NCBI GenBank assembly: GCA_036171755.1
Contig: JAVHRS010000035.1
Coordinates: 2,882 to 26,881 of the forward strand
Source: Minisyncoccota bacterium
Lineage (GTDB): Bacteria; Patescibacteriota; Minisyncoccia; Phycocordibacterales; UBA9973
Length of the DNA stretch: 24,000 nt
Direction of reading: 5' to 3'
In this document: positions 1-15,020 of the stretch, piece by piece
How positions within the stretch are numbered: position 1 is the first letter of the stretch
Layout: every line of letters begins with the position of its first letter
The notes under the pieces: model-generated
The model's database searches: none
Seen by the model: only the letters and a program-made list of their open reading frames with translations
What the model was told of the DNA's origin: nothing
Made by a program: the position numbers and the translations under genes

Positions 1-618
1 AATACCAAAATAAATATCATTTTTGGCGTCCCCATTTTTATACCACCACTTCACATTGTTATTTTTTTCAAGATTATTCTCTATAAACCCAATTTCAGTT
101 TCCCATTTATCTACAACATAGACTGGGTTCATAACACACCTTTTGTACTTCTTTTCTTCTGCATTCTTAGGATAATAATCTTCTTTTGATACATTCCACT
201 TAAGATTTTCCTCATAATCCTTTTCAGTTTTTAATCTGCTCTTAGAATATTTTTCTACAGAGCTTTGTATAACTTTAGCAAAGAATGACTGATTTTCTAG
301 TATTATTTTTTGTATATCAATTTTATCTTTGTCATCTTCTTCAAATCCTAAATACTTATTAAATGTTTGATATATCGCTGTAAGTATTGGGCTTATTGAT
401 CTTGCTCTTTGAAAAGGAGAAGTGTAACTTCCTAAGAAATCTTCCACCTTTGTTTTTATTTCATCTAATTCTTTATATCCAAAAACTGTTGTAAGGAGAT
501 TGTTTATCATTAAACGAGTGGCTGATTCATCTAGTTCGGAATATTGTTTACGTAAATATTGTTTGCCGTATGTTTTTAATTTCTTAGCAAACTCTTTTAT
601 TTGATTTTGTGTAGCCAT
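1..618 (-). CDS. Hypothetical protein, first 206 codons (runs off the window); restriction-endonuclease-like signatures
   Basis: Not in the supplied track because it is truncated. I translated the reverse strand and it is open for all 206 codons from the ATG at 618-616: MATQNQIKEFAKKLKTYGKQYLRKQYSELDESATRLMINNLLTTVFGY...YVVDKWETEIGFIENNLEKNNNVKWWYKNGDAKNDIYFGI. The ELDESATR..L and D-x-E...VKWWxKN stretches recall HsdR-N / Res-type PD-(D/E)XK modules. This is from memory and unverified. Confidence 0.6.
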   Translation of the reverse strand, partial: MATQNQIKEFAKKLKTYGKQYLRKQYSELDESATRLMINNLLTTVFGYKELDEIKTKVEDFLGSYTSPFQRARSISPILTAIYQTFNKYLGFEEDDKDKIDIQKIILENQSFFAKVIQSSVEKYSKSRLKTEKDYEENLKWNVSKEDYYPKNAEEKKYKRCVMNPVYVVDKWETEIGFIENNLEKNNNVKWWYKNGDAKNDIYFGI

Positions 619-827
619 AAAATTTGTTACTTTTGCGTTTTAGTAATAAATCCTAGGGTAAGACGCAAAAAGCCCACCACATAGGTAGTGACCGAAGTCA
701 CTCATATCTGTTTCCAGATACGGCACGTAATGCGACCCCATATGATGGGTTCTTTATGCATTACGTGACTAACTTTCACCATGCCTTTATTTCTAAAGGT
801 TTAGGCTACTTAAACTTATTAGGTTGT
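619..827 (-). ncRNA. Structured ~200-nt 5' leader RNA, copy A (unclassified; candidate riboswitch/cis-regulator or ribozyme)
   Basis: About 195 nt (627-820) recur at 6202-6397. Read on the minus strand, the hairpins carry stable tetraloops: CCUUUA-GAAA-UAAAGG, AUCUG-GAAA-CAGAU and GUGAC-UUCG-GUCAC. A 10-bp helix CACGUAAUGC/GCAUUACGUG (plus 724-733/758-767) encloses CCCAU-CAU-AUGGG. Differences between the copies are compensatory. The element lies between a minus-strand promoter (TTGAAT 861-856, TGn-TATTAT 842-834) and the ATG at 618. Confidence 0.8.
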
Positions 828-947
828 AATTAAATAATAACACTTCGACCTTATTATTCAAAGCCCATTGTATCGCAAACCCTTGAAATCATAGAGGAAG
901 TTACAAACAAGTTGCCAACGATTAGGGTTTAGTAGCGTACGTAGCAG

Positions 948-975
948 TTGACAAAAAGTTTGAATATGATATACT
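948..975 (+). promoter_or_regulatory. Sigma70-like promoter of the DGR target gene
   Basis: TTGACA (948-953), a 16-nt spacer, then TG-n-TATACT (967-975, extended -10). It is followed by a leader of roughly 85 nt before the ATG at 1063. Confidence 0.55.
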
Positions 976-1062
976 AAGCACTAGTAAACGATACCCGACC
1001 TCTATCTAACACATGGAACTTGGGTGTCGGGACCCAGTTCTTTAAATCTAAAAAATAAGACA

Positions 1063-1980
1063 ATGACAACAGAAAAGTTGATCACGTCTGCTCAAACAGA
1101 CAAAGTCGCAGATCTTGGCAGAGAAGCTGTAAAGACTGCAGTTGGTAAAGTAAATCCAACAAGTACCAATGTTCAAACTGGGATCATCAGCAATGGTCGT
1201 GAGTTCAAAAACAGAGTTGAAGAAGCTGTAAAAGCTATCATTCTGGAAATGATTACACCCAACCAGTACGCCAATGAGGTGGTAAGCTCAAGCTATGCCT
1301 ACCCGAAGGAATACAAGATGAAACCGATCGAAGAACAGGTAAGATTCATTGCCGAAAAGTTCGGACTTGATCCGACACAAGCATTGGAATTTATCAAAAT
1401 GTTACCCGCATTACCTGAAGGTGCCGAAGGATGGTTCGCCATTCCAAAAGTATTATCAGTTGCAAAAAAACATTTTTCTGCGATTACCAATTCTGCCGAA
1501 CAGTATTGTGAAGCCGTGAAATTAGTTCACAGCAAACTTGCTGAAAGCCGTAGCTTCTACAATTACCGTGAAGGTCAGATTACCACCGCACAGATTCGCC
1601 AACATCCCCGTACCATCAGTTTCCTCGAACAATTGGAATCTGAACAACAGGGTGACATTCTGATTCTCGCCGTTCAATACGGAATGAGACATCGTGGCAA
1701 ATCAGTTCGCCGTGCAAGAGAAACGTTCTCAGGTAATGAATTCGGACTTGGAGCATTCGCTCTTGGCTATATGGCATTGGTTCACCCCGATCGTTATGTT
1801 CGTTGGGAAGAACTTGATACCGATTGTGCAGGTGACGAATTTGCTCCTGGTGCTGATGGCGTGTTCTCGAAGGCTCCGATCTTCTACTTCAGCGATGTCG
1901 AGCTTGAGTTCGACACGGTCGATGTGTCCCGTGCCCGCGGTAGCTATGGTTCTGCCTCGGCGTTCGTTCCGCAGAATTGA
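1063..1980 (+). CDS. DGR target (variable) protein, family not recognised
   Basis: Long ORF. The track starts it at GTG 1024; I prefer the first ATG at 1063 (MTTEKL...), though neither start has a clear RBS. The C-terminal ~46 codons are the VR. I see no signal peptide, TM segment or known VR scaffold motif. The gene is visibly more GC-rich than the flanking DNA. Confidence 0.85.
   Translation: MTTEKLITSAQTDKVADLGREAVKTAVGKVNPTSTNVQTGIISNGREFKNRVEEAVKAIILEMITPNQYANEVVSSSYAYPKEYKMKPIEEQVRFIAEKFGLDPTQALEFIKMLPALPEGAEGWFAIPKVLSVAKKHFSAITNSAEQYCEAVKLVHSKLAESRSFYNYREGQITTAQIRQHPRTISFLEQLESEQQGDILILAVQYGMRHRGKSVRRARETFSGNEFGLGAFALGYMALVHPDRYVRWEELDTDCAGDEFAPGADGVFSKAPIFYFSDVELEFDTVDVSRARGSYGSASAFVPQN
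1840..1977 (+). repeat. DGR variable region (VR)
   Basis: VR 1844-1974 aligns base for base with TR 2349-2479 (offset 505). There are 15 mismatches, and every one falls at a TR adenine: TR 2355, 2390, 2397, 2403, 2405, 2411, 2423, 2424, 2435, 2436, 2441, 2442, 2445, 2448 and 2477. TR AAAA at 2345-2348 versus VR TTTG would add four more if the repeat starts there. Confidence 0.95.
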
Positions 1981-2044
1981 TCCTTGTACTTTGAATTCTT
2001 GAATCTTTTGTTTCCTTGATTCTTGATCTCAAAAATTTTTTTGA

Positions 2045-2076
2045 ATAGGGTTATCCACATGGATGACCCTATTTTT
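2045..2076 (+). terminator. Rho-independent terminator after the target gene
   Basis: 12-bp stem AUAGGGUUAUCC / GGAUGACCCUAU (2045-2056 / 2061-2072) with an ACAU loop, followed by UUUU. It lies ~65 nt after the VR stop codon and could also correspond to the hairpin described downstream of VR in some DGRs. Confidence 0.8.
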
Positions 2077-2344
2077 GCGTTTAATTCAAAAACTGATATA
2101 GTAACTATGAGCCTAGGTTAGTGTATAGTCGTTTACGGATGACTATCACCGAACTCTTTCTCTTATGAGAAATCTCCGACCAGAATTATAGTGATTATGG
2201 TTACTATAAGAGCGTCGCTGTGATAAGGGATACTGCTTACTACTTTTTAAGGCAAGCATGTAAATGTGTTGCCAGATAAAATACAGAATTGTGATTCATG
2301 TGCAATATCATGTTTCGTGATTTGTGATTTGGATAGAAAGTAGT

Positions 2345-2482
2345 AAAACTCCTGATGCTGATGGCGTGTTCTCGAAGGCTCCGATCTTCAACTTCAACGA
2401 TGACAAGCTTAAGTTCGACACGAACGATGTGTCCAATGCCAACGATAACTATGGTTCTGCCTCGGCGTTCGTTCCGAAGTAT
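2345..2482 (+). repeat. DGR template repeat (TR)
   Basis: Invariant copy of the VR. It carries in-frame AAC/AAT codons (six Asn codons) at the positions that differ in VR. The first non-adenine mismatch is at 2480 (T versus A), marking the IMH/IMH*-type boundary. The 85-aa track ORF 2324..2581 is this repeat, not a gene. Confidence 0.95.
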
Positions 2483-2493
2483 CCAATATACAC

Positions 2494-2521
2494 AAAAGGT
2501 ATCCTGTTAGGGATACCTTTT
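2494..2521. terminator. Bidirectional terminator hairpin between TR and the avd 3' end
   Basis: AAAAGGUAUCC / GGAUACCUUUU stem (2494-2504 / 2511-2521). The GC core has U-rich tails on both strands: UUUUGCUUUUAU on plus and UUUUGUGUAUAUU on minus. It ends 5 nt before the avd stop codon (2526-2528). Confidence 0.7.
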
Positions 2522-2525
2522 GCTT

Positions 2526-2873
2526 TTATCGTTCAACCGAACGAATCCATCCACCAAGCATTCTACCGATCTCGTCGGTAATATTTTGAAGCAGAGTGTA
2601 CTTCTTTACATCAAGCGTTTTACTTTCTTTCATTAGTCGAACAAAGAAACGAAAAATGTTTAATTTTACACTGGCTTTTTCAAGTAAAAGTAATTTGCGT
2701 TCTTTTGAAGAATAACTTGCTTCTAAGACATATTCGAGAATATCAATCATTACATTTTCAGATCGTTCATAGATTGAAAATCTTTCATGTTTTGGGACTA
2801 ATGTTCTGTATTCATGAAATGTTTTATATAACTCGTGAATTTTTCTTAGAATTGGCACATCATTTTCATTCAT
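2526..2873 (-). CDS. avd: DGR accessory variability determinant (Avd), four-helix-bundle type
   Basis: 115 aa. ...LNIFRFFVRLMKESK...ITDEIGRMLGGWIRSVER closely parallels the Bordetella phage bAvd C-terminus as I recall it (LRFWLRFL...EVGRILGSWIARV). It sits immediately beside a DGR RT but on the opposite strand. Confidence 0.85.
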   Translation of the reverse strand: MNENDVPILRKIHELYKTFHEYRTLVPKHERFSIYERSENVMIDILEYVLEASYSSKERKLLLLEKASVKLNIFRFFVRLMKESKTLDVKKYTLLQNITDEIGRMLGGWIRSVER

Positions 2874-3929
2874 ATGCGTGTATTTATCAATTTATTTAAT
2901 TCATTAATTCAGCCAGAACACCTATTTTATTCATGGGAGGAATTTAAACGTGACAAAGGTTTAAAGGAAGATATTCTCTTATTTGAGAAAAATCTTGAAA
3001 GTGAAATATTTAAGCTTCACCGAGAACTAAAAGGAGAAGTGTATAAACATAGCGGATATGAAAGTTTCTTTATTTCAGATCCGAAACGAAGACATATCCA
3101 TAAAGCAACAGTTAGAGACCGTGTAGTACATCATGCAATTATGCATACATTGTATCCTCTTTACGACAAAACATTTATTGATAATTCATTTTCTTGTCGT
3201 GTTGGTAAAGGGACCCATAAAGGTGTTCTTGCCCTTAGATCTATGATTGCCAAGGCGAGTAAAAATAATACTCAAACTGTTTACATTCTCAAGTGTGATG
3301 TTGAGAAATTTTTTGATTCAGTTCATCATATTATTTTAATTGATATACTTAGAAAAAGAATTAGGGACAAAAAACTCATGGATTTACTGATAGAAGTAAT
3401 TGAGAGTTTTATAAGTGATCGTTCTACTTTATTTGATCGTGTAGGTTTACCAATTGGAAATCTTACATCTCAACTTTTTGCAAACATATACATGGATAAA
3501 TTTGACCAATATATGAAGCATGAATTGAAAGTAAAATACTATGCTCGTTACACAGATGACTTTGTTATTGTGAGTAAAAATAAAGAATACTTGTCTAACC
3601 TTAAATTAGATATTTCTAAATTCCTTAGTGAGTCACTAAGACTTACTATTCACCCAAAGAAAATTACCATTCGTAAGTATACTCATGGTATTGATTTTCT
3701 AGGACATGTTTCTTTTCCACATCATGTATTGATAAGAAAAAGAACCTTAGAAAGAGCTACAAGAAGAATTAATGAGAAGATTGTTTTGTATAAAGCAGGA
3801 TCTCTTGAGAAAGAGAAACTTGAAGCCACTTTATACTCATATCTTGGAGTCCTTTCTCATGCCAATGCTTATAGATTTTCTGAGAAACTGAAGAATGACT
3901 ATTTTCTTTCGGTTAATAATCCTAATTAA
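2874..3929 (+). CDS. DGR-type reverse transcriptase
   Basis: 351 aa. Contains IGNLTSQLFANIYM (the DGR-diagnostic [LIV]GxxxSQ motif), the catalytic box YTDDFVIV, DFLGH, and N-terminal DPKRRHIHKATVRDRVVHHA. Adjacent to a TR/VR pair and avd. Confidence 0.95.
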   Translation: MRVFINLFNSLIQPEHLFYSWEEFKRDKGLKEDILLFEKNLESEIFKLHRELKGEVYKHSGYESFFISDPKRRHIHKATVRDRVVHHAIMHTLYPLYDKTFIDNSFSCRVGKGTHKGVLALRSMIAKASKNNTQTVYILKCDVEKFFDSVHHIILIDILRKRIRDKKLMDLLIEVIESFISDRSTLFDRVGLPIGNLTSQLFANIYMDKFDQYMKHELKVKYYARYTDDFVIVSKNKEYLSNLKLDISKFLSESLRLTIHPKKITIRKYTHGIDFLGHVSFPHHVLIRKRTLERATRRINEKIVLYKAGSLEKEKLEATLYSYLGVLSHANAYRFSEKLKNDYFLSVNNPN

Positions 3930-3981
3930 AAAAATTCGACTAGGTTTTATAATCAGCTAATTTGATTAAAGCTTTACAGAA

Positions 3982-5073
3982 TTACTGGCATTGAGGGCTT
4001 AATGTACGACTAGGAAATGAAGAAAGTAACGACTCTAAAGAAGTAAAGGATTTTATATATTTTTCATTTAATGACTTCCAACCATCACATGTTTCTGGAT
4101 AATAATATTTAGAAGTTGAATATGATGATGTGTAATACTTTCCAGTTGAGTTGGTGGTGTTTGTAGAAGTAGAAGAGGATGTTGAAGTCGCAGTAACAGC
4201 AGAAGTTGTAGTATTACCATTACATGTATTAGTAGACCATAACCCTAAAAGATTTGCTTGAGCATATTTTTGTGCTGTTTTAAATTCAGATTGATATTTA
4301 TATGGCGAGTTATAAGTATACTCATGTGCATATCCCTGTTCAATCATGTATTTATTATAAAATAGACCATCTTCTCTATATACATATGCTAAAGTACGCC
4401 CGTATTTATCGAGAGTGCCTTGAGTTGAATCACTTTCAATTCTAACTTTTTTCCCTGATAATAATTCTTTTGCTTTATTGGATGCCTCTTTACCAAAACA
4501 TTGAACTGGTTTCCTTGGATCAAGTGTTTCTGGGGTGTCTAATCCGATAAGGCGAAGCGTTATTATTGCTCCGTCTTTATTTATTTTAATAGTATCCCCA
4601 TCAACAACGCTTGAAACCGCATAATATTTATATTGAGAATTAGGCGAAGTTGTAGGTGTTTGTGCAGAAGTCACCGATTTAACTTCTTGTGCATTTTTTA
4701 CTTCTTGTTTAGCGGGTATTATTTCATTATTTATCTGTTGAGCTGGATTTTTTGTTTCTACTTGAACATTTGTATTTTCTAAAACATTATTATTTTGTGG
4801 AGCAGGTATTATTTCTGTTTTCTTTGGAAGAAAAATAGAAGAAACAATTAATAAGACAATTACAGCAACAATTTTTATTGTCCTTGAAAAGGAAAAATTA
4901 AATTTCTTTTGAATAAATTTAGAAATGACAGGAATTGTAATTAGTGAAGCAAGAATCATAAATATTCCACCTAGAATACTTTTTTCTAAAGTACTAAGAC
5001 CAGCTATTAACAACAATATACCTATGATCCAAGATAGAATGTTGATTAGATTTAATTTAATATTTTTATTCAT
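3982..5073 (-). CDS. Membrane-anchored thermonuclease (SNase) family nuclease
   Basis: Two N-terminal TM helices and a low-complexity linker precede the SNase core (VVDGDTIKI...RLIGLDTPET...CFGKEAS...DKYGRTLAYVY...GYAHEY). A Ser/Thr-rich tract and a small Cys-containing C-terminal domain (KYYYPETC...SPQC) follow. Confidence 0.85.
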   Translation of the reverse strand: MNKNIKLNLINILSWIIGILLLIAGLSTLEKSILGGIFMILASLITIPVISKFIQKKFNFSFSRTIKIVAVIVLLIVSSIFLPKKTEIIPAPQNNNVLENTNVQVETKNPAQQINNEIIPAKQEVKNAQEVKSVTSAQTPTTSPNSQYKYYAVSSVVDGDTIKINKDGAIITLRLIGLDTPETLDPRKPVQCFGKEASNKAKELLSGKKVRIESDSTQGTLDKYGRTLAYVYREDGLFYNKYMIEQGYAHEYTYNSPYKYQSEFKTAQKYAQANLLGLWSTNTCNGNTTTSAVTATSTSSSTSTNTTNSTGKYYTSSYSTSKYYYPETCDGWKSLNEKYIKSFTSLESLLSSFPSRTLSPQCQ

Positions 5074-5087
5074 AATTTGTAAATTAC

Positions 5088-5456
5088 TTAAGAAATGATA
5101 TTAATTAAAATAATTAGTCCTATAAAAATGGCTATAGCAATAAGAATCATTTTTCTCTGTTTGATATTTTTTACTTCTGCCTTTTTGTCCTCTGAAACAG
5201 CTTTTTCTATTTCTTCTTTAGACATAACCTCGCTTATTATCTTTTGTGCTCTTGGGGAGTCCATAGGTATTAGACTTGGACTTTTGCACTTAGGACATAT
5301 TTTATGTCTTGATGAGGAACGCCAAATTGAATAGATTAGCCCTGGGATAATAAAACAAAGCCAAAGGATTACTTCTATACAACCATTCCCTCCAATCGCA
5401 CCCTTTGGTTCACCGACATAATTACATTGAGTACAAACTAATATTTTTGATGACAT
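5088..5456 (-). CDS. Small membrane zinc-ribbon protein (LITAF-like arrangement)
   Basis: CTQC, then a hydrophobic stretch VILWLCFIIPGLIYSIW, then HKICPKC. This split zinc ribbon around a membrane-inserted segment resembles LITAF/SIMPLE domains. There is a second TM at the C-terminus. Confidence 0.6.
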   Translation of the reverse strand: MSSKILVCTQCNYVGEPKGAIGGNGCIEVILWLCFIIPGLIYSIWRSSSRHKICPKCKSPSLIPMDSPRAQKIISEVMSKEEIEKAVSEDKKAEVKNIKQRKMILIAIAIFIGLIILINIIS

Positions 5457-5480
5457 ATTTAAAAAATTAATTAATAATAT

Positions 5481-6194
5481 TTATTCATATAAAACAGTTA
5501 AAATGCCAGTACCAGAGAAATCACCTTGGTTTGGGGTATGGATTGTTATTACAGATTTTCCATATTTGTAATCTATGTTAGGATTAACATTTATTTTTTC
5601 CTCTGGAATTCGTATCTTTGGATAAATACCGCCAAAAATAATTTGGTCTGAGTTGAAATGCTGAGTGTAAACAAGTTTATCATTCTTTGACATTGAATTA
5701 CTGCCAGCGTATAACTTCACATCAGCTGTAATTAACATTTTTTCTGTTGCGTCACTAGTTATAATATCTCCATTTTTATCTAAATAAACTACTTCAAGAA
5801 CAGGTCCATCATTCTCGACATCAGCATCCCAATTATCTTGTAGTCCTCCACTAACTCGTATGGCAGATAGTCCATCTATCTGTAAAGTTTTATTAGATGA
5901 TATTGGTGTTGTTGGGACAACTTGAGTATTTGCGACCACTGGTACAGTTTTTGGAGTGGTAACTATTTTATTTTGAACCACTGTATCTTTTTGTATTACG
6001 TTAGTTTCTGCTACCGCAACAGGACTACTTACTGTTGATTCGACAATTGGAATCTCATCTTGTATTGGAATTTGAGCAATAGGTTCTTTTTTGTTTGAGA
6101 ATTTAGAACCAACAAATAGACCAATAACAAGTATTGCAACTATAACAACGATCTTACCTGTCATAGTTTCCATAAATTGTTTTACATCTTTCAT
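5481..6194 (-). CDS. Signal-anchored secreted/surface protein, unknown function
   Basis: 237 aa with an N-terminal hydrophobic anchor IVVIVAILVIGLFVG. The rest is not recognised. It is the first gene after leader RNA copy B and is tightly packed with the two downstream genes. Confidence 0.7.
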   Translation of the reverse strand: MKDVKQFMETMTGKIVVIVAILVIGLFVGSKFSNKKEPIAQIPIQDEIPIVESTVSSPVAVAETNVIQKDTVVQNKIVTTPKTVPVVANTQVVPTTPISSNKTLQIDGLSAIRVSGGLQDNWDADVENDGPVLEVVYLDKNGDIITSDATEKMLITADVKLYAGSNSMSKNDKLVYTQHFNSDQIIFGGIYPKIRIPEEKINVNPNIDYKYGKSVITIHTPNQGDFSGTGILTVLYE

Positions 6195-6403
6195 ATTAGA
6201 TTTACTTTTGCGTTTTTAGTGATAAAACCTAGTGATAAGACACAAAAAGCCCACCACATAGGTAGAGACCGAAGTCTCTCATATCAGTTTCCCGATACGG
6301 CATATCACGCGACCCCATATGATGGGTTCTTTATGCGTGATATGACTAACTTTCACCATGCCTTTATTTCTAAAGGTTTAGGCTACTTAAACTATTAACT
6401 TGT
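6195..6403 (-). ncRNA. Structured ~200-nt 5' leader RNA, copy B
   Basis: 6202-6397 is the second copy of 627-820. Helix changes relative to copy A are compensated: CAUAUCACGC/GCGUGAUAUG, GAGAC-UUCG-GUCUC and AUCGG-GAAA-CUGAU. It starts ~7 nt downstream of a perfect minus-strand TATAAT (6415-6410) and ends at the ATG at 6194. Confidence 0.8.
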
Positions 6404-6409
6404 AAAGAA

Positions 6410-6415
6410 ATTATA
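6410..6415 (-). promoter_or_regulatory. -10 box (TATAAT) driving leader copy B and the nuclease operon
   Basis: Perfect TATAAT on the minus strand, placed just before the point where similarity between the two leader copies begins. The -35 is weak or unclear. Confidence 0.45.
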
Positions 6416-6519
6416 CCTTATTTTTTAAGGTTGCACCATATTAGCTCACATTTAAATATTTGTGTAGTCGAGTTATCAACTAGAAGAAATAAGACTATAA
6501 AAATAGTGCAGTATTTACA

Positions 6520-7110
6520 CTATTTATTTTTAATTTTATCCAAAATATCTGCATAAATATTTAATGGATTAGATAATATTTTATCACTTTTTGTTGAAAT
6601 AATTTTATAAAACTTTTCATAAAACCAGAGTTGATCTTCCTTTGAGGAATTAAATTTATCCCAAATTGAATTATTGGTGGCCATCTCATCTAAAATTGTT
6701 TTTAAATTATGTATCTTATCACAAAGAGAAACAGTAGTTGCCTCAAGTGAAGCATTTTCTAGATGCTTTAAATATTTTTCTTTTCTTATTTTCCATGTTT
6801 CTTTATCATTACTTTCCATCTCAGGATCTTTATCTTCTGATACTTCTTTTATTATTTGTAAAACTTTTTCACCAAAAGTATTTTGGATAGAATTCTCCTT
6901 CTCAGACATTAAAACTTTTACATCTTCCAAAACATCATGCAACAAACAGGCAATAAAAATATCTTCATCATCAGTAAATTGACTAGCAATATACATAACC
7001 GAAAAAGGGTGAGAAATATATGGAATCTTTTCCTCACCTTTTCGAAAATAACCATCATGGAATTTTGCAGCAATTTGAATTGCTGTATTCAACCTAGAAC
7101 TAAAATTCAT
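6520..7110 (-). CDS. HD-domain phosphohydrolase, RelA/SpoT-type (p)ppGpp-hydrolase-like (small alarmone hydrolase-like)
   Basis: AIQIAAKFHDGYFRKGEEKIPYISHPFSV...ACLLHDVLEDV matches the SpoT/Mesh1 HD hydrolase pattern (H..Q.RK...PY..HP ... LLHDvvED). The protein is 196 aa and single-domain. Confidence 0.8.
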   Translation of the reverse strand: MNFSSRLNTAIQIAAKFHDGYFRKGEEKIPYISHPFSVMYIASQFTDDEDIFIACLLHDVLEDVKVLMSEKENSIQNTFGEKVLQIIKEVSEDKDPEMESNDKETWKIRKEKYLKHLENASLEATTVSLCDKIHNLKTILDEMATNNSIWDKFNSSKEDQLWFYEKFYKIISTKSDKILSNPLNIYADILDKIKNK

Positions 7111-7115
7111 ATAAT

Positions 7116-7367
7116 TTATTGATTGAGTGTATGTCCTAAGTATTCAAAACGATCAATCATTTTTCCATCTTTCTCAACTTTCTCAAAAAACATATCTAGT
7201 GGGCGTGCTGAAACCATAGAGCCTTTTCGATCCTTTAAATCACCATTAAGAGGAATATAAACAACGAGTCTCTCTTCTGTTTCTGTATGACGAGCAATAG
7301 CAAGAACTTGTACAAGAAGCCCCTTAAAGTGTTTATAAATACCAAGTTTAACATCTAAATTATTCAT
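7116..7367 (-). CDS. DUF1653 family protein
   Basis: LGIYKHFKGLLVQVLAIARHTETEERLVVY...ARPLDMFFEKVEKDGKMIDRFEYLG matches the DUF1653 pattern as I remember it (YRHYKG.LY.V...A.HSETEE.LVVY...RPL.MF...V...G..V.RFEY.G). Confidence 0.8.
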   Translation of the reverse strand: MNNLDVKLGIYKHFKGLLVQVLAIARHTETEERLVVYIPLNGDLKDRKGSMVSARPLDMFFEKVEKDGKMIDRFEYLGHTLNQ

Positions 7368-7398
7368 AAGTTTAAATTATTTTTATCTAATAATACTA

Positions 7399-7426
7399 TT
7401 GATTATACCAAAATATATAGTATAAT
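7399..7426 (+). promoter_or_regulatory. Promoter of the Csx3-like fusion gene (near-leaderless mRNA)
   Basis: TTGATT (7399-7404), a 16-nt spacer, then TATAAT (7421-7426). The ATG at 7435 is only 8 nt past the -10 box, so the transcript would have almost no leader. Confidence 0.55.
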
Positions 7427-7434
7427 CAATATAT

Positions 7435-8667
7435 ATGAAAGAGGGTCAAGAAAGTTTTATACATAAAGATAATAAAATTGAACAAAAGAACTTTTTTGAA
7501 AAAGGTCTTAAAATTGTTGTTGGTGGACCGCCACATTCAGGTAAATCTGTATTTCTTGATGGATTATTAAAAAATCTTCCATATAATACTCACTATTTTA
7601 GTGGATGCCCTGATGGCGAAGGCCCATGGCTCCAAAGACACTATACTGAAGATGAGGTAAAAGCATTACGTCGTAAAGGTTCGTTTACGGAAGAGTTTGT
7701 AAATTTTGCACATGATGCAGTCAAAGACTTTGATGGTCAACTTATGCTTATTGATATTGGTGGTCGAATTACTCCAGAAAATATGAAAATTATTTCAGGG
7801 GCGACTCACGCAATTATTCTTTCTGGTGATACTAAAAATTTTGATGAATGGAATGATTTTTTTAAGAAGGAAGGTATAGAAATTATTGCAAAGCTTCATA
7901 GTGATTATGAGGGTAAAGAAGATACAATAACGGAAGATAATGAACAAATACAAGGTAGTGTTCATTATCTTGAAAGAGGACAACATCCAGAAGATAGAGA
8001 GAGTATAAAATTTGTTGCTGAACATATTACCGAACTTGTTAAAAAAAATGAAGAGAAAAAGAATATATCATTAGAGGATAATAATGAGCTTTTGAAAGTG
8101 GACTCATTAGTTTTTGAATATAATCTTAAGGCTAATTATGATAAAGAAACAGTTCCTGAGACATTAACTGGCTTACAAAAATATTTAAAAGATAATTATA
8201 GTGATTCTAAACAAATCAAGATCGATGGGCGTATAAATTCATATCTTGCTGGTTTTTTAGGAACTGAACTTGCAAATGGAGAACGAAAAATATCTTTCAA
8301 TAGTCCAAATGGTTTTGTTGGATTAAAGGAACTCAATCAATCCGAAAATGGAAATGTTATTGATTGGGAACAAAAAGAAAATATTACAAAACATGGAGAT
8401 TCTTTTCTTGAAATTAATTTTAAACTAGACCCATCAAAGCCTTTTAAACCAGAAGATTTAGATGAAATGAATATCCCTAAGATTAGCACGGGTAAAATTG
8501 TATCTATTGGCGGTAAGGGTCCACATTGGCTTAGAACGTCTATTGCAATAGGATATAAAAAGGATGCACAAGTTATTGCTATGTTCATTCCAGGAGAAGG
8601 ATCTATTGTTGTACATTCAAAAGATATAGAAAAATATCCCCTTGGAACATTACTTGAAAATAAATAA
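7435..8667 (+). CDS. P-loop NTPase fused to tandem Csx3-like (Crn3 ring-nuclease-like) domains
   Basis: The N-terminus has a Walker A motif, VVGGPPHSGKS. The C-terminus KIVSIGGKGPHWLRTSIAIGYKKDAQVIAMFIPGEGSIVVHS parallels A. fulgidus Csx3 as I recall it (GVVISGRGPIWLHCFLAHKY...VAVYDPRLGAVVVQS). A degenerate copy lies upstream (IKIDGRINSYLAGFLGTEL...ISFNSPNGFVGL). Not verified by search. Confidence 0.65.
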   Translation: MKEGQESFIHKDNKIEQKNFFEKGLKIVVGGPPHSGKSVFLDGLLKNLPYNTHYFSGCPDGEGPWLQRHYTEDEVKALRRKGSFTEEFVNFAHDAVKDFDGQLMLIDIGGRITPENMKIISGATHAIILSGDTKNFDEWNDFFKKEGIEIIAKLHSDYEGKEDTITEDNEQIQGSVHYLERGQHPEDRESIKFVAEHITELVKKNEEKKNISLEDNNELLKVDSLVFEYNLKANYDKETVPETLTGLQKYLKDNYSDSKQIKIDGRINSYLAGFLGTELANGERKISFNSPNGFVGLKELNQSENGNVIDWEQKENITKHGDSFLEINFKLDPSKPFKPEDLDEMNIPKISTGKIVSIGGKGPHWLRTSIAIGYKKDAQVIAMFIPGEGSIVVHSKDIEKYPLGTLLENK

Positions 8668-8713: not shown

Positions 8714-9616
8714 CTAATTTAGCTTTTCCTCAATCATCTTGAACTCTGGAGTATTACCAAATTCAGATCGTATTTTTTCTAAAAGATTTTTGATCATCTC
8801 TTTATCCATTTTAATCATTCCAGATTCTTCAAGATTCTTACCTTCCTGTCGAAGTGATTGAAGCCCAATTACTTCAGCTAATTCGAATTGTCTTGTTTCT
8901 GGATTAGAAGCTAAACGAATCATATTAGGCCATTGTCCACTAATACCATAGATTGCTGTTGTTTGAAGTGTTCCTAATGCCCCCAAACCAGCAGGAGCGT
9001 AAGCAACCTTACCTGATTCCCAGTCACCAACAGTCATACCGGCTTTTTGAGACGCTTCAACAAGAGCGGAAATAATTTTATTTTTCCCATCACCAGAAAT
9101 TTCTTCCGTAGTAATTTTATTGTCCCCAAAAGGTACAAATACAAGATTTTCTACTGTTGTCCCCATTTCTTCAGCAAGTGCTAAATGTTGATCAGCTGAT
9201 ATAGGGTGTCCACCTTGTAAAACAAATGTTTTACCCGATGCACTTCCTTCAATTCTCTGTCCACGAGCATCACGAGAAGCTTCATGTCGCCATTCAGACA
9301 AATTGATTTCAACGGGTTCTGATCCTGGTACAACAAGAAGAGCTTTTTTAGGTAATCCTGCTATCATTTCAGTGAGAGCAAGAAATATTCCAGATGCATG
9401 AGCCTGCCCAGGCAAAGCTATCTTGTCTGCATTTTTAATCTTACTAAGATTTGCAGAAACATATTCTTTTACTTGATCAATTAGATGCTTATCTTTTTCA
9501 AGATTAAGATTCAATACTTCTGTCTTTATATTTTCTCCAGTAATTGTAGGTACTGTTGAAAATGTGGATTCTGGTTGCTTTTCAGCAGAATTTACACGTT
9601 CAAATTTTGGTTCCAT
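8714..9616 (-). CDS. Unknown two-domain protein, paralog of 9718..10548
   Basis: 300 aa. It is collinear with the upstream gene product: EINLSEWRHEASRDAR versus ELNLHDFRHNQARPKR; TTVENLVFVPF versus GTETLVFANL; YAPAGLGALGTLQTTAIYGISGQWP versus MITAGLSPVNAILVTALHALCESWC; FELAEVIGL versus FHFTDLIQL. It has its own TGn-TATAAT -10 box on the minus strand (9653-9648). Confidence 0.75.
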   Translation of the reverse strand: MEPKFERVNSAEKQPESTFSTVPTITGENIKTEVLNLNLEKDKHLIDQVKEYVSANLSKIKNADKIALPGQAHASGIFLALTEMIAGLPKKALLVVPGSEPVEINLSEWRHEASRDARGQRIEGSASGKTFVLQGGHPISADQHLALAEEMGTTVENLVFVPFGDNKITTEEISGDGKNKIISALVEASQKAGMTVGDWESGKVAYAPAGLGALGTLQTTAIYGISGQWPNMIRLASNPETRQFELAEVIGLQSLRQEGKNLEESGMIKMDKEMIKNLLEKIRSEFGNTPEFKMIEEKLN

Positions 9617-10899: not shown

Positions 10900-11784
10900 T
10901 TACAGTCTCCTCAACACGGCCTCATCAAATACATTTATAGCATCAGAGCTTACTACGTTAGCAAGTTTAAAAACTTGTTGTACTAAATCTGTAGCTTCTG
11001 TTTTTGAGAGTTTAGGTTGTAGGTTCTGATTGATAGATTCTTGTAAATACCACTGTCTAGGTGATAATAACTTGAACCCAGCATCACTAACTTTTTCTCT
11101 CCATCCATCTTCTGGAAGAATTTCTTCATCTTCATGACCTTCATAAAAAGGTTTAGAGGATTCAGGCATCCACGAAGACATGTTTTGCGAACAGTATCGA
11201 AAACCTTTTACATCAAAATAATCATATCCGAGTTTTTTAATTTCTGTTAAAAAACTCAAGTCTGATACTCCTGAAATATAAGGATGTGCAATTGGCAAAC
11301 ACGATACACCGAACTCTTTTGCAAGAGCTAATGTATGCAAATGTTTTTGAAGAGAAACTTTTTCAATACTCCAATTTCCAGTTATACCTAGTATAAGATA
11401 AAAATTTGGATATTGTGCTAATTTTTGCATAACTTCACGACTAATTGGCCATTTTGTTACGCAAGTTGTAAGTTTTGCAACACTACTTGCTTTTTCCATC
11501 CATTCCCATAGGTATTTTTCAATTTTCGGGAAGAACGGATCAGTAATTGCAGTAAATCCTACAAAGTCACCTTTTAGAATTTTCCAAGGAAATTCTTTAA
11601 AGCGTTTTTGTTCATCCGAATCAGTATCAATCCATGGTGTGACATTCACAAAGCTACATGCTTTATTTATCCCCATTAATGGATTTTGATTCCAAATTTC
11701 TCTACGTACTTCATGCTCTGTGATGAAGCAGTATTTACAGGCAACTGGACATGCCGGCTCACCTGAAACGAATTTTTGTTTCAT
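10900..11784 (-). CDS. Radical SAM enzyme (SplB-like/'DNA repair photolyase'-type barrel)
   Basis: Contains CPVACKYCF (CxxxCxxC), followed by GFTAITDPFFPKIE and CVTKWP, which resemble the COG1533-type tDPYqP.E / TK pattern. I prefer the ATG at 11784 (MKQKFVSGEPACPVACKYC). The track start at 11859 would overlap the upstream gene by ~100 nt. Confidence 0.8.
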   Translation of the reverse strand: MKQKFVSGEPACPVACKYCFITEHEVRREIWNQNPLMGINKACSFVNVTPWIDTDSDEQKRFKEFPWKILKGDFVGFTAITDPFFPKIEKYLWEWMEKASSVAKLTTCVTKWPISREVMQKLAQYPNFYLILGITGNWSIEKVSLQKHLHTLALAKEFGVSCLPIAHPYISGVSDLSFLTEIKKLGYDYFDVKGFRYCSQNMSSWMPESSKPFYEGHEDEEILPEDGWREKVSDAGFKLLSPRQWYLQESINQNLQPKLSKTEATDLVQQVFKLANVVSSDAINVFDEAVLRRL

Positions 11785-12340
11785 TATCAATTTTTGGTTT
11801 TTGTATCTCACATATACCAATGATTTCATCGAGCACCTTATTGGGTGATTGATCTGCATTAATTACATGTAAGAGATTTTTTGAAGAATAAAATTCAAGT
11901 AGCTGTGGTATCCTACCTAGTTCAATAAGTAAGCGTTCGTTCATTTTTTCAAGTGAATCATCTTTTCTGTTTCTGTCTAAGGCACGTTTTATACATAACT
12001 CATCACTGAGTTCAAAATATATAACATGTGTAGGTTTAATAGAAAATAATTCAGCTTGATGTACATTTCGTGGAAATCCATCAACAACCCATGAATCTAA
12101 ATCCTGAAGTTTTGATTGTGCAATTTGCACAGTTAGTTCGTCAGGAAGTGGTTTCCATGTTTTTTGATTAAAGTGGTCTCGAATAGATTGATGCAAGGAG
12201 TGCTCAAGGTTAGATGCTATTTCGCGTGATACATCACCAATAGAAATATGTGGTATTTTGTATTTTTGCGAAAGCATCTCACCTTGAGTTCCTTTACCTG
12301 TACCTGGTTTACCTAACAATACGATTTTCATATCTTTCAT
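11759..12340 (-). CDS. Adenylate-kinase-like nucleoside monophosphate kinase (short, no zinc lid)
   Basis: IVLLGKPGTGKGTQGEMLSQKYKIPHISIGD and VVDGFPRN match the Adk P-loop and NMP-binding signatures (GxPGxGKGTQ, DGFPR). Its 3' end overlaps the radical SAM start, suggesting translational coupling. Confidence 0.8.
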   Translation of the reverse strand: MKDMKIVLLGKPGTGKGTQGEMLSQKYKIPHISIGDVSREIASNLEHSLHQSIRDHFNQKTWKPLPDELTVQIAQSKLQDLDSWVVDGFPRNVHQAELFSIKPTHVIYFELSDELCIKRALDRNRKDDSLEKMNERLLIELGRIPQLLEFYSSKNLLHVINADQSPNKVLDEIIGICEIQKPKIDNETKIRFR

Positions 12341-12352
12341 TGTATTTTAAGA

Positions 12353-13582
12353 TTAAGAATTCGTAAAGAGGTTATTATAGGTAAAACTTTTTTTGCAAAC
12401 TTTAGTCTTTCTATCCTCTGGAAGCTCAATCATCTCAAGTAACCTAGAAGGATTAAAACCGAAGCTTTTTTGTTCATGAATATAATATTTCTCAATACAA
12501 TATTTGCAATCGAAACATTTCTTCATTGCAGTAGCTATTGGCCACCATGAGTTCAAACAAGTGATTTCAGGAACTTTTGGGAAATTAGGAAAATTAACTT
12601 CTCCAACATCCTTCATTCCCTTATCTCTACAACCATCTTGCTGGCATATCATACCAGTAAGAAACCTCATAAAAGTGAGATCTCCTAAACGAATTTTACC
12701 TCTAACTTCTATATGAGGATTTTCGTTTAAAAAGAAACACGTCGTGCAACATGATATACATTTAAGGCGATTACTTGCCTCAACATCACATTTCTGTTGC
12801 ACTTCATTCCCAGCAACAAACTTTACGTCGTAGCCAAGTTCTTTTAAAAACTCGATACTACCTTCACGAGGTTCAGATAGTCCTTGACAAGTCGTAAGAA
12901 GTGGACAACTTACCTCACTACATTTCACTAATTTTGGTGAATTGTAATAAGGGTTATATGTCCACTTATGCCCAAGCAAGAAGTCCACAGCACAGCTTGT
13001 CCTTGTGAACAACTGCACTCCAAACTCTTTACTTGCTGCTAAAGTATCAGACCAGATTTCGGGTGTAATTTGCTTTACCCGCAGGACCCATTCGGTCACT
13101 TCTGCGGGTTGCATTTCGTTAACAAGCATCTCATCCCCACGAAATCCAGCCACTACTGCCGCTCGACAATTGACTTCACTAAGACGACGGAAGATATAAT
13201 TAATTGTCTCCCGATTAGTATTGTACGGCGGAGTCAATGGTCTTATATACCCAATAGCAGGAACCCCTACCTCATTTAAGAGGCGGATATTCTCGTATCG
13301 GTGCTCATGTCCTACATTTTCCATACTTCTAAGTTCAGAGATGGAAACGAGGACCACGATGTTCAAGCCTTTGTCCTTACGAAGACGAAGATCAGCGACC
13401 TTACCCTCGCAAAGACGACCCTTCAAAATCAAACCTACTGGACCCTCATGATGAGTCTCCAATAGATCATCCAGTTTTGTGAGCGTATCCGACCACTGAA
13501 GAGTCGGGTCCCCATAAAAGTTATTTATAGAGACAGGAATCTGTCGAAGCAAACTCTTATACATTTCTGTTTTTTCTTTCAT
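12353..13582 (-). CDS. Radical-SAM-like barrel paralog lacking the N-terminal CxxxCxxC, with a Cys-rich C-terminal extension
   Basis: The N-terminal half parallels the neighbouring radical SAM protein: VSINNFYGDPTLQW versus GFTAITDPFFPK, and VVAGFRG versus DVKGFRY. No Cys triad precedes it. The C-terminal half carries CSEVSCPLLTTC, CDVEASNRLKCISCCTTCF, CQQDGC and CFDCKYCI. Confidence 0.7.
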   Translation of the reverse strand: MKEKTEMYKSLLRQIPVSINNFYGDPTLQWSDTLTKLDDLLETHHEGPVGLILKGRLCEGKVADLRLRKDKGLNIVVLVSISELRSMENVGHEHRYENIRLLNEVGVPAIGYIRPLTPPYNTNRETINYIFRRLSEVNCRAAVVAGFRGDEMLVNEMQPAEVTEWVLRVKQITPEIWSDTLAASKEFGVQLFTRTSCAVDFLLGHKWTYNPYYNSPKLVKCSEVSCPLLTTCQGLSEPREGSIEFLKELGYDVKFVAGNEVQQKCDVEASNRLKCISCCTTCFFLNENPHIEVRGKIRLGDLTFMRFLTGMICQQDGCRDKGMKDVGEVNFPNFPKVPEITCLNSWWPIATAMKKCFDCKYCIEKYYIHEQKSFGFNPSRLLEMIELPEDRKTKVCKKSFTYNNLFTNS

Positions 13583-13673
13583 TTTTTTATTTATTTTAGT
13601 TTACAAGAGTGATGATAATATCACCACCCCAAAAACTAAAATAAATTCTGAAAGAAAAGTTCCTATCTTTCTA

Positions 13674-15020
13674 CTACAAAGCAATCTTATTTATTGCTTT
13701 AATAAACCTCTCTGCATCTTCTTCTGTGTTCTGTAATCCAAATGAAGCTCTCACAAATCCTGGTACTGCATTTTCCTTACCATTTTGTACATCCTTTATG
13801 ATTTGTGTTTCATCTTTTATTTTAAGTAATTTACGGACTACATTATAAACACAGAAGCTTCCAGCTCTAACTCCAATACCATATTCTTTATTAAGTCTCT
13901 CTGCAACTTCTTTATTAGTCATGCCTTTAATATTAAAAGGAATGACTGTGTTTAAATGTTTTTCATTTACATAAATATCTATTTTTGGATTCTTCTTCAT
14001 TTCCTCGTACACTTTCTTAGTTAATCCTTTCTCATATTCCTCTATATTTTTTATTCCAATTTCTTTAACTTTATTTAAGGCTATTGCCATAGACACAGCA
14101 CCAATAGCATTCGGAGTTCCTGGATCATGAGCAATTTGGTTATGATATCTAAGAAATTCTCCATTTTTTGTGATATAAGGTAAATTTCCACCCCCAATTT
14201 CATAAGAAATAAATTGATCAAAGAAATCTTTTGGTCCTATTAAGAATCCTCCACCGTATGGTGCATAAAATTTATGCCCTGAGGCGGCTAAGAAATCTAT
14301 ACCCATTTCTTCCATGTTTATTTCATGGTGTTGTATATACTGACATCCATCAACGATAAAGTATGCACCATTTTCATGAACAATTTTACCTATTTCTTTT
14401 ATCGGAGGACAGTATCCTGTAACATTTGATGAAGCTGTAAGAACAAAAACTTTGATTTTATTCTTAATAAATATTTTTTTAATATCTTCTAAGTCAAATT
14501 CAAATTCATCATTAACAGAATATTTTACAATTTGTTTACAACCTTCTTCTTGGATCTTTTTATTTACACTTTCCATTTCACTTATTGCCACTTGATTTAC
14601 TCCAAGTGATTTTATCCCTTCATTTTTCACCCAAGGAAGCCATGATGAGCTATGTTCTATATCAGAAACAGCTACTTTTCCATCAAGAAATGAAAAGAAG
14701 TGAGAGATAGAATTCATTGCTCCTGTTGTGTTTCCAGTGAATACTACATATGAATCATTTGGTGCTCCGACAAATTTACAGATAGTATTTCGACTATCTT
14801 CATATATGTCTGTAGATTTCTCTGACTTAGCTCCTGCTCCACGATGGACAGAACCATAAGAAATCATATAATCCATAACTCCTTTTTCTACATCTATAAA
14901 TGGTGAAGTTGTCGCGGCATTATCTAGATTCACATAAGAAACCTTTTCTAGTTTTTTTGTCTCTACTTGATACTCAAGTATTTCTTTTCGAAATAATTTT
15001 TTTGGATTAATTATATTCAT
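13674..15020 (-). CDS. Class V aminotransferase-fold PLP enzyme, cysteine-desulfurase-like
   Basis: Contains YVNLDNAATT, SVHRGAGAKSEKST and ASGHKFYAPYGGGFLIG (PLP lysine). VRAGSFCVYN is comparable to the SufS/CsdA RxGxHC active-site cysteine loop. Confidence 0.8.
   Translation of the reverse strand: MNIINPKKLFRKEILEYQVETKKLEKVSYVNLDNAATTSPFIDVEKGVMDYMISYGSVHRGAGAKSEKSTDIYEDSRNTICKFVGAPNDSYVVFTGNTTGAMNSISHFFSFLDGKVAVSDIEHSSSWLPWVKNEGIKSLGVNQVAISEMESVNKKIQEEGCKQIVKYSVNDEFEFDLEDIKKIFIKNKIKVFVLTASSNVTGYCPPIKEIGKIVHENGAYFIVDGCQYIQHHEINMEEMGIDFLAASGHKFYAPYGGGFLIGPKDFFDQFISYEIGGGNLPYITKNGEFLRYHNQIAHDPGTPNAIGAVSMAIALNKVKEIGIKNIEEYEKGLTKKVYEEMKKNPKIDIYVNEKHLNTVIPFNIKGMTNKEVAERLNKEYGIGVRAGSFCVYNVVRKLLKIKDETQIIKDVQNGKENAVPGFVRASFGLQNTEEDAERFIKAINKIAL

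Follow-up and report, generated by a model that had tools for sequence, protein, structure and literature searches.

The window analysed here, a 24,000-nucleotide (nt) stretch of contig JAVHRS010000035.1 from a Minisyncoccota bacterium, carries two copies of one structured RNA on its minus strand, at 827..616 (copy A) and 6403..6192 (copy B); it is essentially certain that both are members of the known LOOT RNA family (RF03000) and not of a new class. On balance, LOOT probably acts in cis, as an attenuator or riboswitch-like two-state leader; this reading is built on a covarying helix that runs into a U-run, on the position of the RNA just ahead of start codons, and on pairings that are specific to each leader. 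LOOT was described in 2017 in a survey of intergenic regions, from metagenomes (Weinberg et al. 2017, PMC5737381), and entered Rfam 14 as a "metagenomic-based" family (PMC7779021); it otherwise appears only in method and database papers (PMC7657543, PMC11701678), and a functional study was not found in the literature searched, where only papers of these two kinds turned up.

Family identity and core fold

Through cmscan with Rfam 15 both copies match RF03000 on the minus strand over the whole model (1-121 of 121), copy A with 74.9 bits (E = 1.1e-12) and copy B with 73.6 bits (E = 2.3e-12), the gathering score being 46.4. The original prediction had recognised no known class and had named an Rfam match beforehand as the finding that would speak against it; on this point it is overturned. 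No riboswitch, T-box, ribozyme or other Rfam family reaches its gathering score, and the window otherwise gives two tRNA matches only. The elements of the core are as follows.

687..807, minus strand: LOOT core of copy A, RF03000 model 1-121, indicated by its bit score, compensatory pairs and family covariation
805-799 and 784-779, minus strand: copy A internal loop CCUAAAC/GCAUGG, resembling the 11-nt receptor, beside helix P1
799-784, minus strand: copy A helix P2, with a GAAA loop at 793-790
767-758 with 733-724, minus strand: copy A helix P3
722-703, minus strand: copy A helix P4, with a GAAA loop at 714-711
702-687, minus strand: copy A helix P5, with a UUCG loop
6264..6384, minus strand: LOOT core of copy B, RF03000 model 1-121

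A repeat search finds 92% identity between 659-816 and 6236-6393, the sole long repeat of such a kind in window positions 1-7500, and alignment of the minus strands extends the shared block to about 210 nt (about 827 to 620 in copy A, about 6403 to 6196 in copy B); the similarity gives out immediately ahead of the -10 box at one end and immediately ahead of two unrelated start codons at the other. Within the 121-nt core (807..687 vs 6384..6264) there are exactly 12 differences, which make up six base pairs with pairing kept in all of them, and the loops and junctions hold none. The P3 changes are C-G to U-A, G-C to A-U, A-U to C-G and U-A to C-G, and P5 changes from U-A to A-U. A structured minus-strand RNA with compensatory changes had been predicted, and all six changed pairs do still pair; the strand, the GAAA and UUCG loops and the 10-base-pair (bp) helix had likewise been called correctly. 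The list of helices was also right, but the P4 change, read then as a single substitution, is double (U-A to G.U).

A covariance model from the two window copies was run over loci fetched by pattern scans of genome, metagenome and viral contigs, and yielded at least 126 distinct LOOT instances; the family counts given below are among the matches listed. The first pattern, CCTAAACCN{10,16}GGCATGG, used on viral and genome contigs, was unspecific and was set aside, most of its 240 loci being chance matches or group I introns; a stricter pattern gave 95 LOOTs in 120 metagenome loci. In a MAFFT alignment of 122 sequences, P3, P4 and P5 each show double-sided changes. All 20 LOOT copies in 19 re-checked GTDB species-genome loci pass the Rfam gathering score, with 65-100 bits; most records of the GTDB loci bear the names Parcubacteria, Paceibacterota, Patescibacteria, Gottesmanbacteria or Saccharibacteria, and a few are unclassified or have doubtful bin labels. 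LOOT is also found on ten IMG/VR viral contigs, and the G+C content of the window is 33.5%.

The canonical 11-nt GAAA tetraloop receptor is CCUAAG/UAUGG (PMC11381326); CCUAAA...CAUGG in the P1/P2 internal loop of LOOT is a variant of it, in which the G.U position of the receptor becomes A.C. Together with the GAAA loop of P4 the variant is like the pairs formed with the 11-nt receptor, as in P8 of group I introns, and the P4 loop is predicted from this likeness to dock into the P1/P2 receptor. Both window copies match the upper-case positions of the Rfam consensus in the internal loop (CCUAAaC/GCAUGG) and in the GAAA loop of the fourth hairpin; the invariance of these bases in the alignment is partly forced by the search pattern, and the Rfam consensus conserves them as well. 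In three loci, L047, L066 and L015, a receptor variant identical to that of LOOT immediately precedes, on the 5' side, the conserved P7 element of group I introns. These loci (L015 and L066 are IMG/VR contigs of the type of giant-virus metagenome-assembled genomes, MAGs) have up to four group I introns per 6-7 kb, and the P8 of the introns holds the CCUAAAC/GCAUGG variant and was therefore caught by the loose pattern. A module shared with large ornate RNAs (GOLLD/ROOL) was considered and rejected, the loci being group I introns and the common part the tetraloop-receptor motif. A hairpin at the P3 apex, as drawn for the window copy, was also dropped, because its pairing in the MAFFT alignment is only 60%; such a hairpin may be confined to some lineages or short-lived.

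Tail helix, U-run and leader position

The Rfam model holds P1-P5, the CCUAAAC...GCAUGG loop and the GAAA loop common to both window copies, and it stops at P5; this analysis adds the start motif, the helix between tail and P3 apex, the U-run and the anti-tail, none of which the model covers. The extent of about 195 nt first given for the repeat therefore proves meaningful, as the approximately 70 nt past the Rfam model hold a conserved and covarying tail, the U-run and the anti-tail.

834..861, minus strand: copy A promoter-like site, with a -35 box TTGAAT (861-856), a 16-nt spacer and a -10 box TATTAT (839-834) preceded by TG
817..827, minus strand: copy A predicted transcript start and 5' motif ACAACCUAAUA, following the family consensus ACAAYUKAAUA
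737..756, minus strand: copy A 5' strand of the tail helix, made up of A-rich UAAAGA (756-751) and the P3 apex CCCAUCAUAUGGG (749-737); its duplex with the tail has -23.5 kcal/mol
666..685, minus strand: copy A 3' tail CCUAUGUGGUGGG (685-673), then C, UUUUU and G (672-666); it pairs with the P3 apex and is terminator-like
657..662, minus strand: copy A anti-tail CUUACC, which complements GGUGGG in the tail
630..638, minus strand: copy A pre-start segment ACGCAAAAG, which, as read from the sequence, can pair with the U-run plus GCGU (671-663)
6403..6415, minus strand: copy B -10 box TATAAT (6415-6410), then 6 nt of spacer and the predicted start at A6403 (ACAAGUUAAUA); the offset equals that of copy A and of the family consensus
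6243..6262, minus strand: copy B tail (6262-6250) and C/U-run/G (6249-6243), a terminator-like site with covariation
6205..6239, minus strand: copy B anti-tail CUUAUC (6239-6234) and pre-start segment ACGCAAAAG (6213-6205)

The consensus upstream of the family is tg.TAtaaT, 6 nt and then ACAAyTkAATA; positions +7 to +10 of the start motif are A/A/U/A in 82-93% of 56 aligned upstream regions. By their spacing from the -10 box the transcripts are predicted to start at A827 in copy A and at A6403 in copy B.

Beyond the Rfam model, the helix between the 13-nt tail and the P3 apex shows strong covariation; its three segments are 97.4%, 95.0% and 94.1% paired in the 122 sequences, values which none of 500 shuffles reaches. 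One of its pairs is GC in 45 sequences, AU in 34, CG in 28, UG in 7 and UA in 5, and another is AU in 56 and GC in 54. Past one mismatch the helix extends, with the A-rich strand 5' of the apex pairing with the U-run (87% paired); RNAalifold, left unguided, predicts the tail helix together with these A-rich:U-run pairs. A different long-range pairing had been proposed in the original prediction, CAU-GGUG/UACC-U-AUG closing a multi-helix junction; it is not borne out by the 122 homologs, in which it is 65.6% paired, equal to the mean of the shuffles, 262 of 500 of which are at or above the observed value. The nucleotides of its tail side covary instead with the P3 apex.

A U-run, counted as at least five U in the 9 nt after the tail, is present in 114 of the 122 sequences. 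Since it can pair with the A-rich strand, the tail with its U-run resembles the 3' half of an intrinsic terminator; a consensus scan places terminator-like sites at 691..674, followed by a T-run, in copy A and at 6266..6250, followed by CTTTTTGTGT, in copy B, and thus flags both window copies where 0.1-0.4 are expected by chance. A G+C-rich helix directly before a U-run, often with an A-tract upstream, is what defines an intrinsic terminator, yet the helix here is long-range and not a simple hairpin; transcription is predicted to end at the U-run. A local hairpin within the tail was tried as the terminator stem and rejected, as it is 77.6% paired vs 72.6% in shuffles, far poorer than the tail:apex helix.

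The position of LOOT is that of a leader. An open reading frame (ORF) beginning with ATG follows on the same strand within 200 nt in 118 of 126 instances, six of the eight exceptions being contig ends, and the distance from U-run to ATG has a median of 35 nt. ORFs of at least 60 amino acids (aa) start within 100 nt on the same strand in 102 of 112 cases (91%), vs 36 of 117 (31%) in the mirrored control and 24% at random positions; LOOT thus stands 5' of, co-oriented with and adjacent to an ORF, as a cis-acting leader does and an independent small RNA (sRNA) unit does not. These figures bear on the proposal that LOOT is an autonomous trans-acting sRNA of about 165 nt with its own promoter and terminator, the downstream gene being incidental or reached by leaky read-through. 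The proposal draws on the promoter-like -10 box directly upstream, the terminator-like tail and U-run, a compact, self-contained tertiary fold and the Rfam type of the family, "Gene; sRNA"; the helices that differ between paralogs could in addition be specificity determinants. Against it stand the enrichment of same-strand ORF starts, the small U-run-to-ATG gap, which because of its median length leaves little room for a separate promoter, and the cognate-specific pairings described below, which connect the RNA with the stretch directly before the ATG; the sRNA proposal is accordingly considered unlikely.

The first of these pairings joins the tail to the segment that follows the U-run. The duplex between a tail and the 40 nt after its own U-run has a median of -11.9 kcal/mol; the median is -7.6 when the following 40 nt are taken and -8.9 when tail and segment come from different leaders, and the anti-tail is thus specific to its cognate tail (Wilcoxon p = 2e-13). 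As to the second, 14 of 103 leaders repeat at least 8 nt of their own P3 5' strand exactly, at a site between U-run and ATG which in the clearest cases is 3-20 nt ahead of the ATG; with non-cognate strands the rate is 0.28%, and copies of the P3 3' strand between U-run and ATG were not found in any of the 103 leaders. A leader with a copy of its own P3 5' strand before the ATG allows the P3 3' strand to pair with the start region instead. Perfect copies of 8-12 nt just 5' of the ATG are seen in L385, L263, L309, L297, L257, L250, L323, L208, L356 and others; in the window copies a P3-strand copy next to the ATG is not convincingly present. The window copies carry instead the pre-start segment that can pair with the U-run plus GCGU, the pairing being kept in copy B via a G.U, and this arrangement also occurs in the related leaders L260, L370 and L383. 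Such variable platforms behind a conserved fold are typical of cis-regulatory RNAs.

The energies of the competing folds are close. In nested models copy A has -51.5 kcal/mol for the P3 fold and -52.6 kcal/mol for the tail-helix fold, and copy B has -51.4 and -51.0 kcal/mol, so that the two folds are equal within about 1 kcal/mol in both. The full tail helix, of 20 bp, falls within the loop that P3 closes, which has 24 nt and leaves linkers of only 1 and 3 nt; from the geometry of A-form helices, P3 and the full tail helix are predicted to be mutually exclusive. A shorter tail helix of 8-13 bp could coexist with P3 as an H-type pseudoknot.

The favoured two-state leader is built as follows. 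A sigma-70-like -10 box is followed by the predicted transcript start ACAAYUKAAUA and a compact fold, in which P1/P2 with the 11-nt-type GAAA-tetraloop receptor precede P3, P4 with its invariant GAAA loop, and P5; the 13-nt tail then pairs with the P3 apex and the adjoining U-run can pair with the A-rich strand 5' of the apex, after which the anti-tail segment lies ahead of the start codon, which is about 35 nt past the U-run. In one state P3 would be formed and the tail would be free or bound by the anti-tail, giving read-through and an open start region. In the other, the helix between A-rich strand plus apex and tail plus U-run would replace P3, leading to termination, or the freed strands would mask the start region. 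A signal, which may be a ligand, an ion or a protein, would set the balance between the two states.

Led genes, integrases and possible mobile context

1..618, minus strand: gene led by copy A, with its ATG at 618; the ORF leaves the window, with 206 aa within it
5481..6194, minus strand: gene led by copy B, 237 aa, with an N-terminal membrane anchor (IVVIVAILVIGLFVG)
15528-16856, plus strand: phage-type large serine integrase (Resolvase, Recombinase and Zn_ribbon_recom; phrog_95, E = 5.5e-64)

The protein led by copy A has no Pfam, PHROG or PADLOC family match, and the 237-aa protein led by copy B has no family match either. A hydrophobic N-terminus is present in 80% of the LOOT-led proteins that reach 120 aa, compared with 19% of the remaining ORFs of these loci (odds ratio 17, p = 4e-26). 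Pfam gives nothing for most of the led proteins; the matches include Trypsin_2 (six), PG_binding_1 (three) and Mrr_cat (two), and the proteins comprise trypsin-like peptidases, peptidoglycan-binding domains, zinc ribbons and Mrr-type nucleases. A motif (A/S)(S/A/V)WWNP..W stands directly after the signal peptide in the LOOT-led proteins of L323, L329, L294, L275, L267 and L356; it may be a sorting or anchoring signal specific to the Candidate Phyla Radiation (CPR).

The block of promoter, LOOT and platform, of about 290 nt, is 94% identical between the window (6206-6480) and a Candidatus Paceibacterota MAG (L219, 290-563), and the integrase proteins of the two are 99% identical. In L219 the block is fused to a different gene; homology stops about 10 nt short of the ATG, and the flanking DNA is unrelated at either end. 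The block behaves like a portable cassette, or else genes are swapped right at the ATG. The three close copies (807-687, 6384-6264 and L219 467-347) differ mainly by compensatory pairs in P3-P5, six between copies A and B and five between copy B and L219, and the 95 nt upstream of P1 have a single difference between copy B and L219. This concentration of differences in helices suggests that distinct helix sequences are selected for, or that gene conversion between the paralogs has been patchy.

A portable promoter-plus-leader cassette need not sense anything, and LOOT could be a constitutive structural leader, a very stable 5' fold that shields or insulates the mRNA of accessory genes with high expression. 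The fusion of the near-identical block to unrelated genes is consistent with this, as are the extreme heterogeneity of the downstream genes and the fact that the conserved nucleotides are all structural (receptor, GAAA loop and tail helix). A conserved U-run right after a GC-rich helix would be costly for a purely protective role, however, and the anti-tail and the P3-strand copies by the ATG imply that alternative pairings have been selected; the near-isoenergetic folds also weigh against it. A purely structural leader is thus held to be quite improbable, and a leader that regulates in cis is preferred.

Homologs of the integrase are present in 44 of 123 LOOT loci vs 6 of 262 non-LOOT loci, a rough comparison, since loci of other taxa served as the control. 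In 29 of the 44 the integrase and LOOT are divergently oriented (p = 1e-8), and in ten they are 126-169 nt apart; in four loci LOOT starts 45-62 nt after the integrase stop codon. The window belongs to the divergent class, with a distance of 9.1 kb between LOOT and integrase. The integrase-LOOT loci include L250, L263, L368, L281, L186, L366 and L385; inserts of 0.3-9 kb separate integrase and LOOT in the remaining loci, and tRNA genes lie beyond the 3' end of the integrase in L186, L138, L147 and L196. The association suggests that LOOT belongs to integrative elements, or that a hot spot of integration lies beside it; LOOT-led genes look like exchangeable cargo of integrative elements, which is a lead and not a conclusion.

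The same integrase data can be turned into a proposal at the DNA level, in which the element is a folded single-strand recombination or attachment site for the neighbouring large serine integrase, comparable to attC of integrons. The enrichment of integrases beside LOOT, the divergent arrangement with its fixed spacing in ten loci and the swapped gene behind the conserved block speak for such a site. Large serine recombinases, however, are known to act on double-stranded att sites. Furthermore, just one of the strands is rich in G.U pairs, as at the tail-helix position that reads U.G in 86 of 122 sequences; the element also carries GNRA and UUCG tetraloops and a receptor of the 11-nt type, all tertiary motifs of RNA, and has a promoter upstream and a U-run downstream. 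This proposal is scarcely credible, and a transcribed leader remains the preferred reading.

Several other features were seen around the two copies. A complete diversity-generating retroelement (DGR) lies between them on the plus strand (1024-3929), divergent from copy A; its variable repeat is at 1844-1977, its template repeat at 2349-2482 and its reverse transcriptase at 2874-3929. The 134-nt repeat is found at the 3' end of the ORF 1024-1980 and again upstream of the reverse transcriptase (351 aa), and 15 of 16 mismatches have A in the template copy. LOOT as a part of the DGR was considered and rejected, homologs of the DGR target protein or reverse transcriptase being present in just 2 of 123 LOOT loci. 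A defence-like cluster surrounds copy B (3982-5073, minus; 6520-7110, minus; 7435-8667, plus; 8714-9616, minus) and contains an SNase-domain nuclease (PADLOC C3a212), an HD phosphohydrolase, an AAA-Csx3 fusion and a Csx15-like protein; a CRISPR array was not seen in the window. Between this LOOT and defence island and the integrase is a block of core genes (10900-15020, minus) with an adenylate kinase and a class-V aminotransferase, the adenylate kinase being preceded by a 409-aa membrane protein that is a SecY candidate; because this block lies inside them, the 9 kb between copy B and the integrase are not all accessory. The segment 19651-19738 on the minus strand scores 48.6 bits against the Rfam selenocysteine tRNA (threshold 47) and is called tRNA-Ser (anticodon UGA) by ARAGORN; it is most likely an ordinary tRNA-Ser with a long arm.

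Weighing the proposed two-state leader and its relation to known RNAs

A number of points weigh against a switching leader. The type under which Rfam files LOOT is that of an sRNA gene. Termination is predicted from the consensus signature of the U-run, and the stem before it is a long-range helix which encloses P4, P5 and one P3 strand; we know of no precedent for a terminator with such a long-range enclosing stem. If the short pseudoknot coexists with P3, the fold may be constitutive rather than a switch. The stricter search pattern requires CCTAAACC, GGCATGG and SGAAAS at the right distance, which biases the sample towards close relatives. The LOOT-led proteins have no common pathway, the shared property being export or membrane anchoring only, and receptor, GAAA loop, tail helix and U-run between them cover every conserved position, with no obvious ligand pocket left. 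A classical metabolite riboswitch is less favoured because no conserved pocket is apparent and a common pathway is missing.

The same inventory of conserved positions bears on catalysis, for the multi-helix fold with its pseudoknot and tetraloop-receptor contact resembles small ribozymes, and occurrence in several copies beside diverse genes would suit a self-cleaving ribozyme or other catalytic RNA in the leader. No conserved unpaired core nucleotides appear to be left beyond the structural motifs, however, and no ribozyme family scores at the Rfam gathering score; a catalytic role is very unlikely. The proposed cis-acting attenuator or two-state leader can be compared with regulatory RNAs of known function.

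In the ZTP (pfl), fluoride (crcB) and preQ1 riboswitches the 3' strand of a pseudoknot is shared with the expression platform, and a separate terminator hairpin competes with the pseudoknot. LOOT is similar in that its tail pairs with an upstream loop and is linked to the U-run and start region, and in that the platform varies by lineage; it is unlike them in that the long-range helix itself precedes the U-run, and no ligand, pocket or coherent metabolic regulon is seen. GEMM-I, the cyclic di-GMP-I riboswitch, has a tetraloop-receptor contact, and both GEMM-I and ydaO, which binds cyclic di-AMP, precede unusually diverse genes, many of them for envelope or secreted proteins, as is expected of a global signal. 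LOOT shares the diverse and often envelope-related or secreted genes downstream and, with GEMM-I, the tetraloop-receptor motif; it has no similarity to either in sequence or model, neither scoring in cmscan. That LOOT responds to a second messenger would be speculation by analogy with these RNAs.

The CI RNA of P4 and the c4 RNA of P1 and P7 are structured 5' RNAs of temperate elements, in which short repeats of their own sequence near the ribosome-binding region pair specifically. The P3-strand copies by the ATG of LOOT leaders resemble these repeats, and LOOT too is a structured 5' RNA, possibly of mobile elements; unlike the phage RNAs, to which it has no homology, it has such copies in only about 14% of leaders, the window copies not being among them.

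For the family as a whole, the analysis adds the tail helix and the terminator signature that goes with it, a position as leader, alternative pairings, led genes biased towards exported proteins, hosts in the CPR and an association with integrases. LOOT has been an orphan since 2017, known from metagenomes only and filed as an sRNA, and is now placed in named CPR genomes; "function unknown" is replaced by a concrete hypothesis of attenuation or switching which can be tested. A further step, tentative and rather doubtful, would make LOOT the sensor of a new riboswitch-like class in CPR/Patescibacteria: the P3 fold, braced by tetraloop and receptor, would compete with the long tail helix that ends in the U-run, the balance would answer to a global signal of the cell, for instance an envelope-related second messenger or ion, and the switch would turn on the secreted and membrane cargo of serine-integrase elements. 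The CPR bacteria are uncultivated; their genomes are reduced, and they are thought to rely on host cells via their surfaces. If true, an RNA dedicated to controlling the genes of their surface and secreted accessory proteins, perhaps borne by mobile elements, would give a rare insight into regulation in these organisms.

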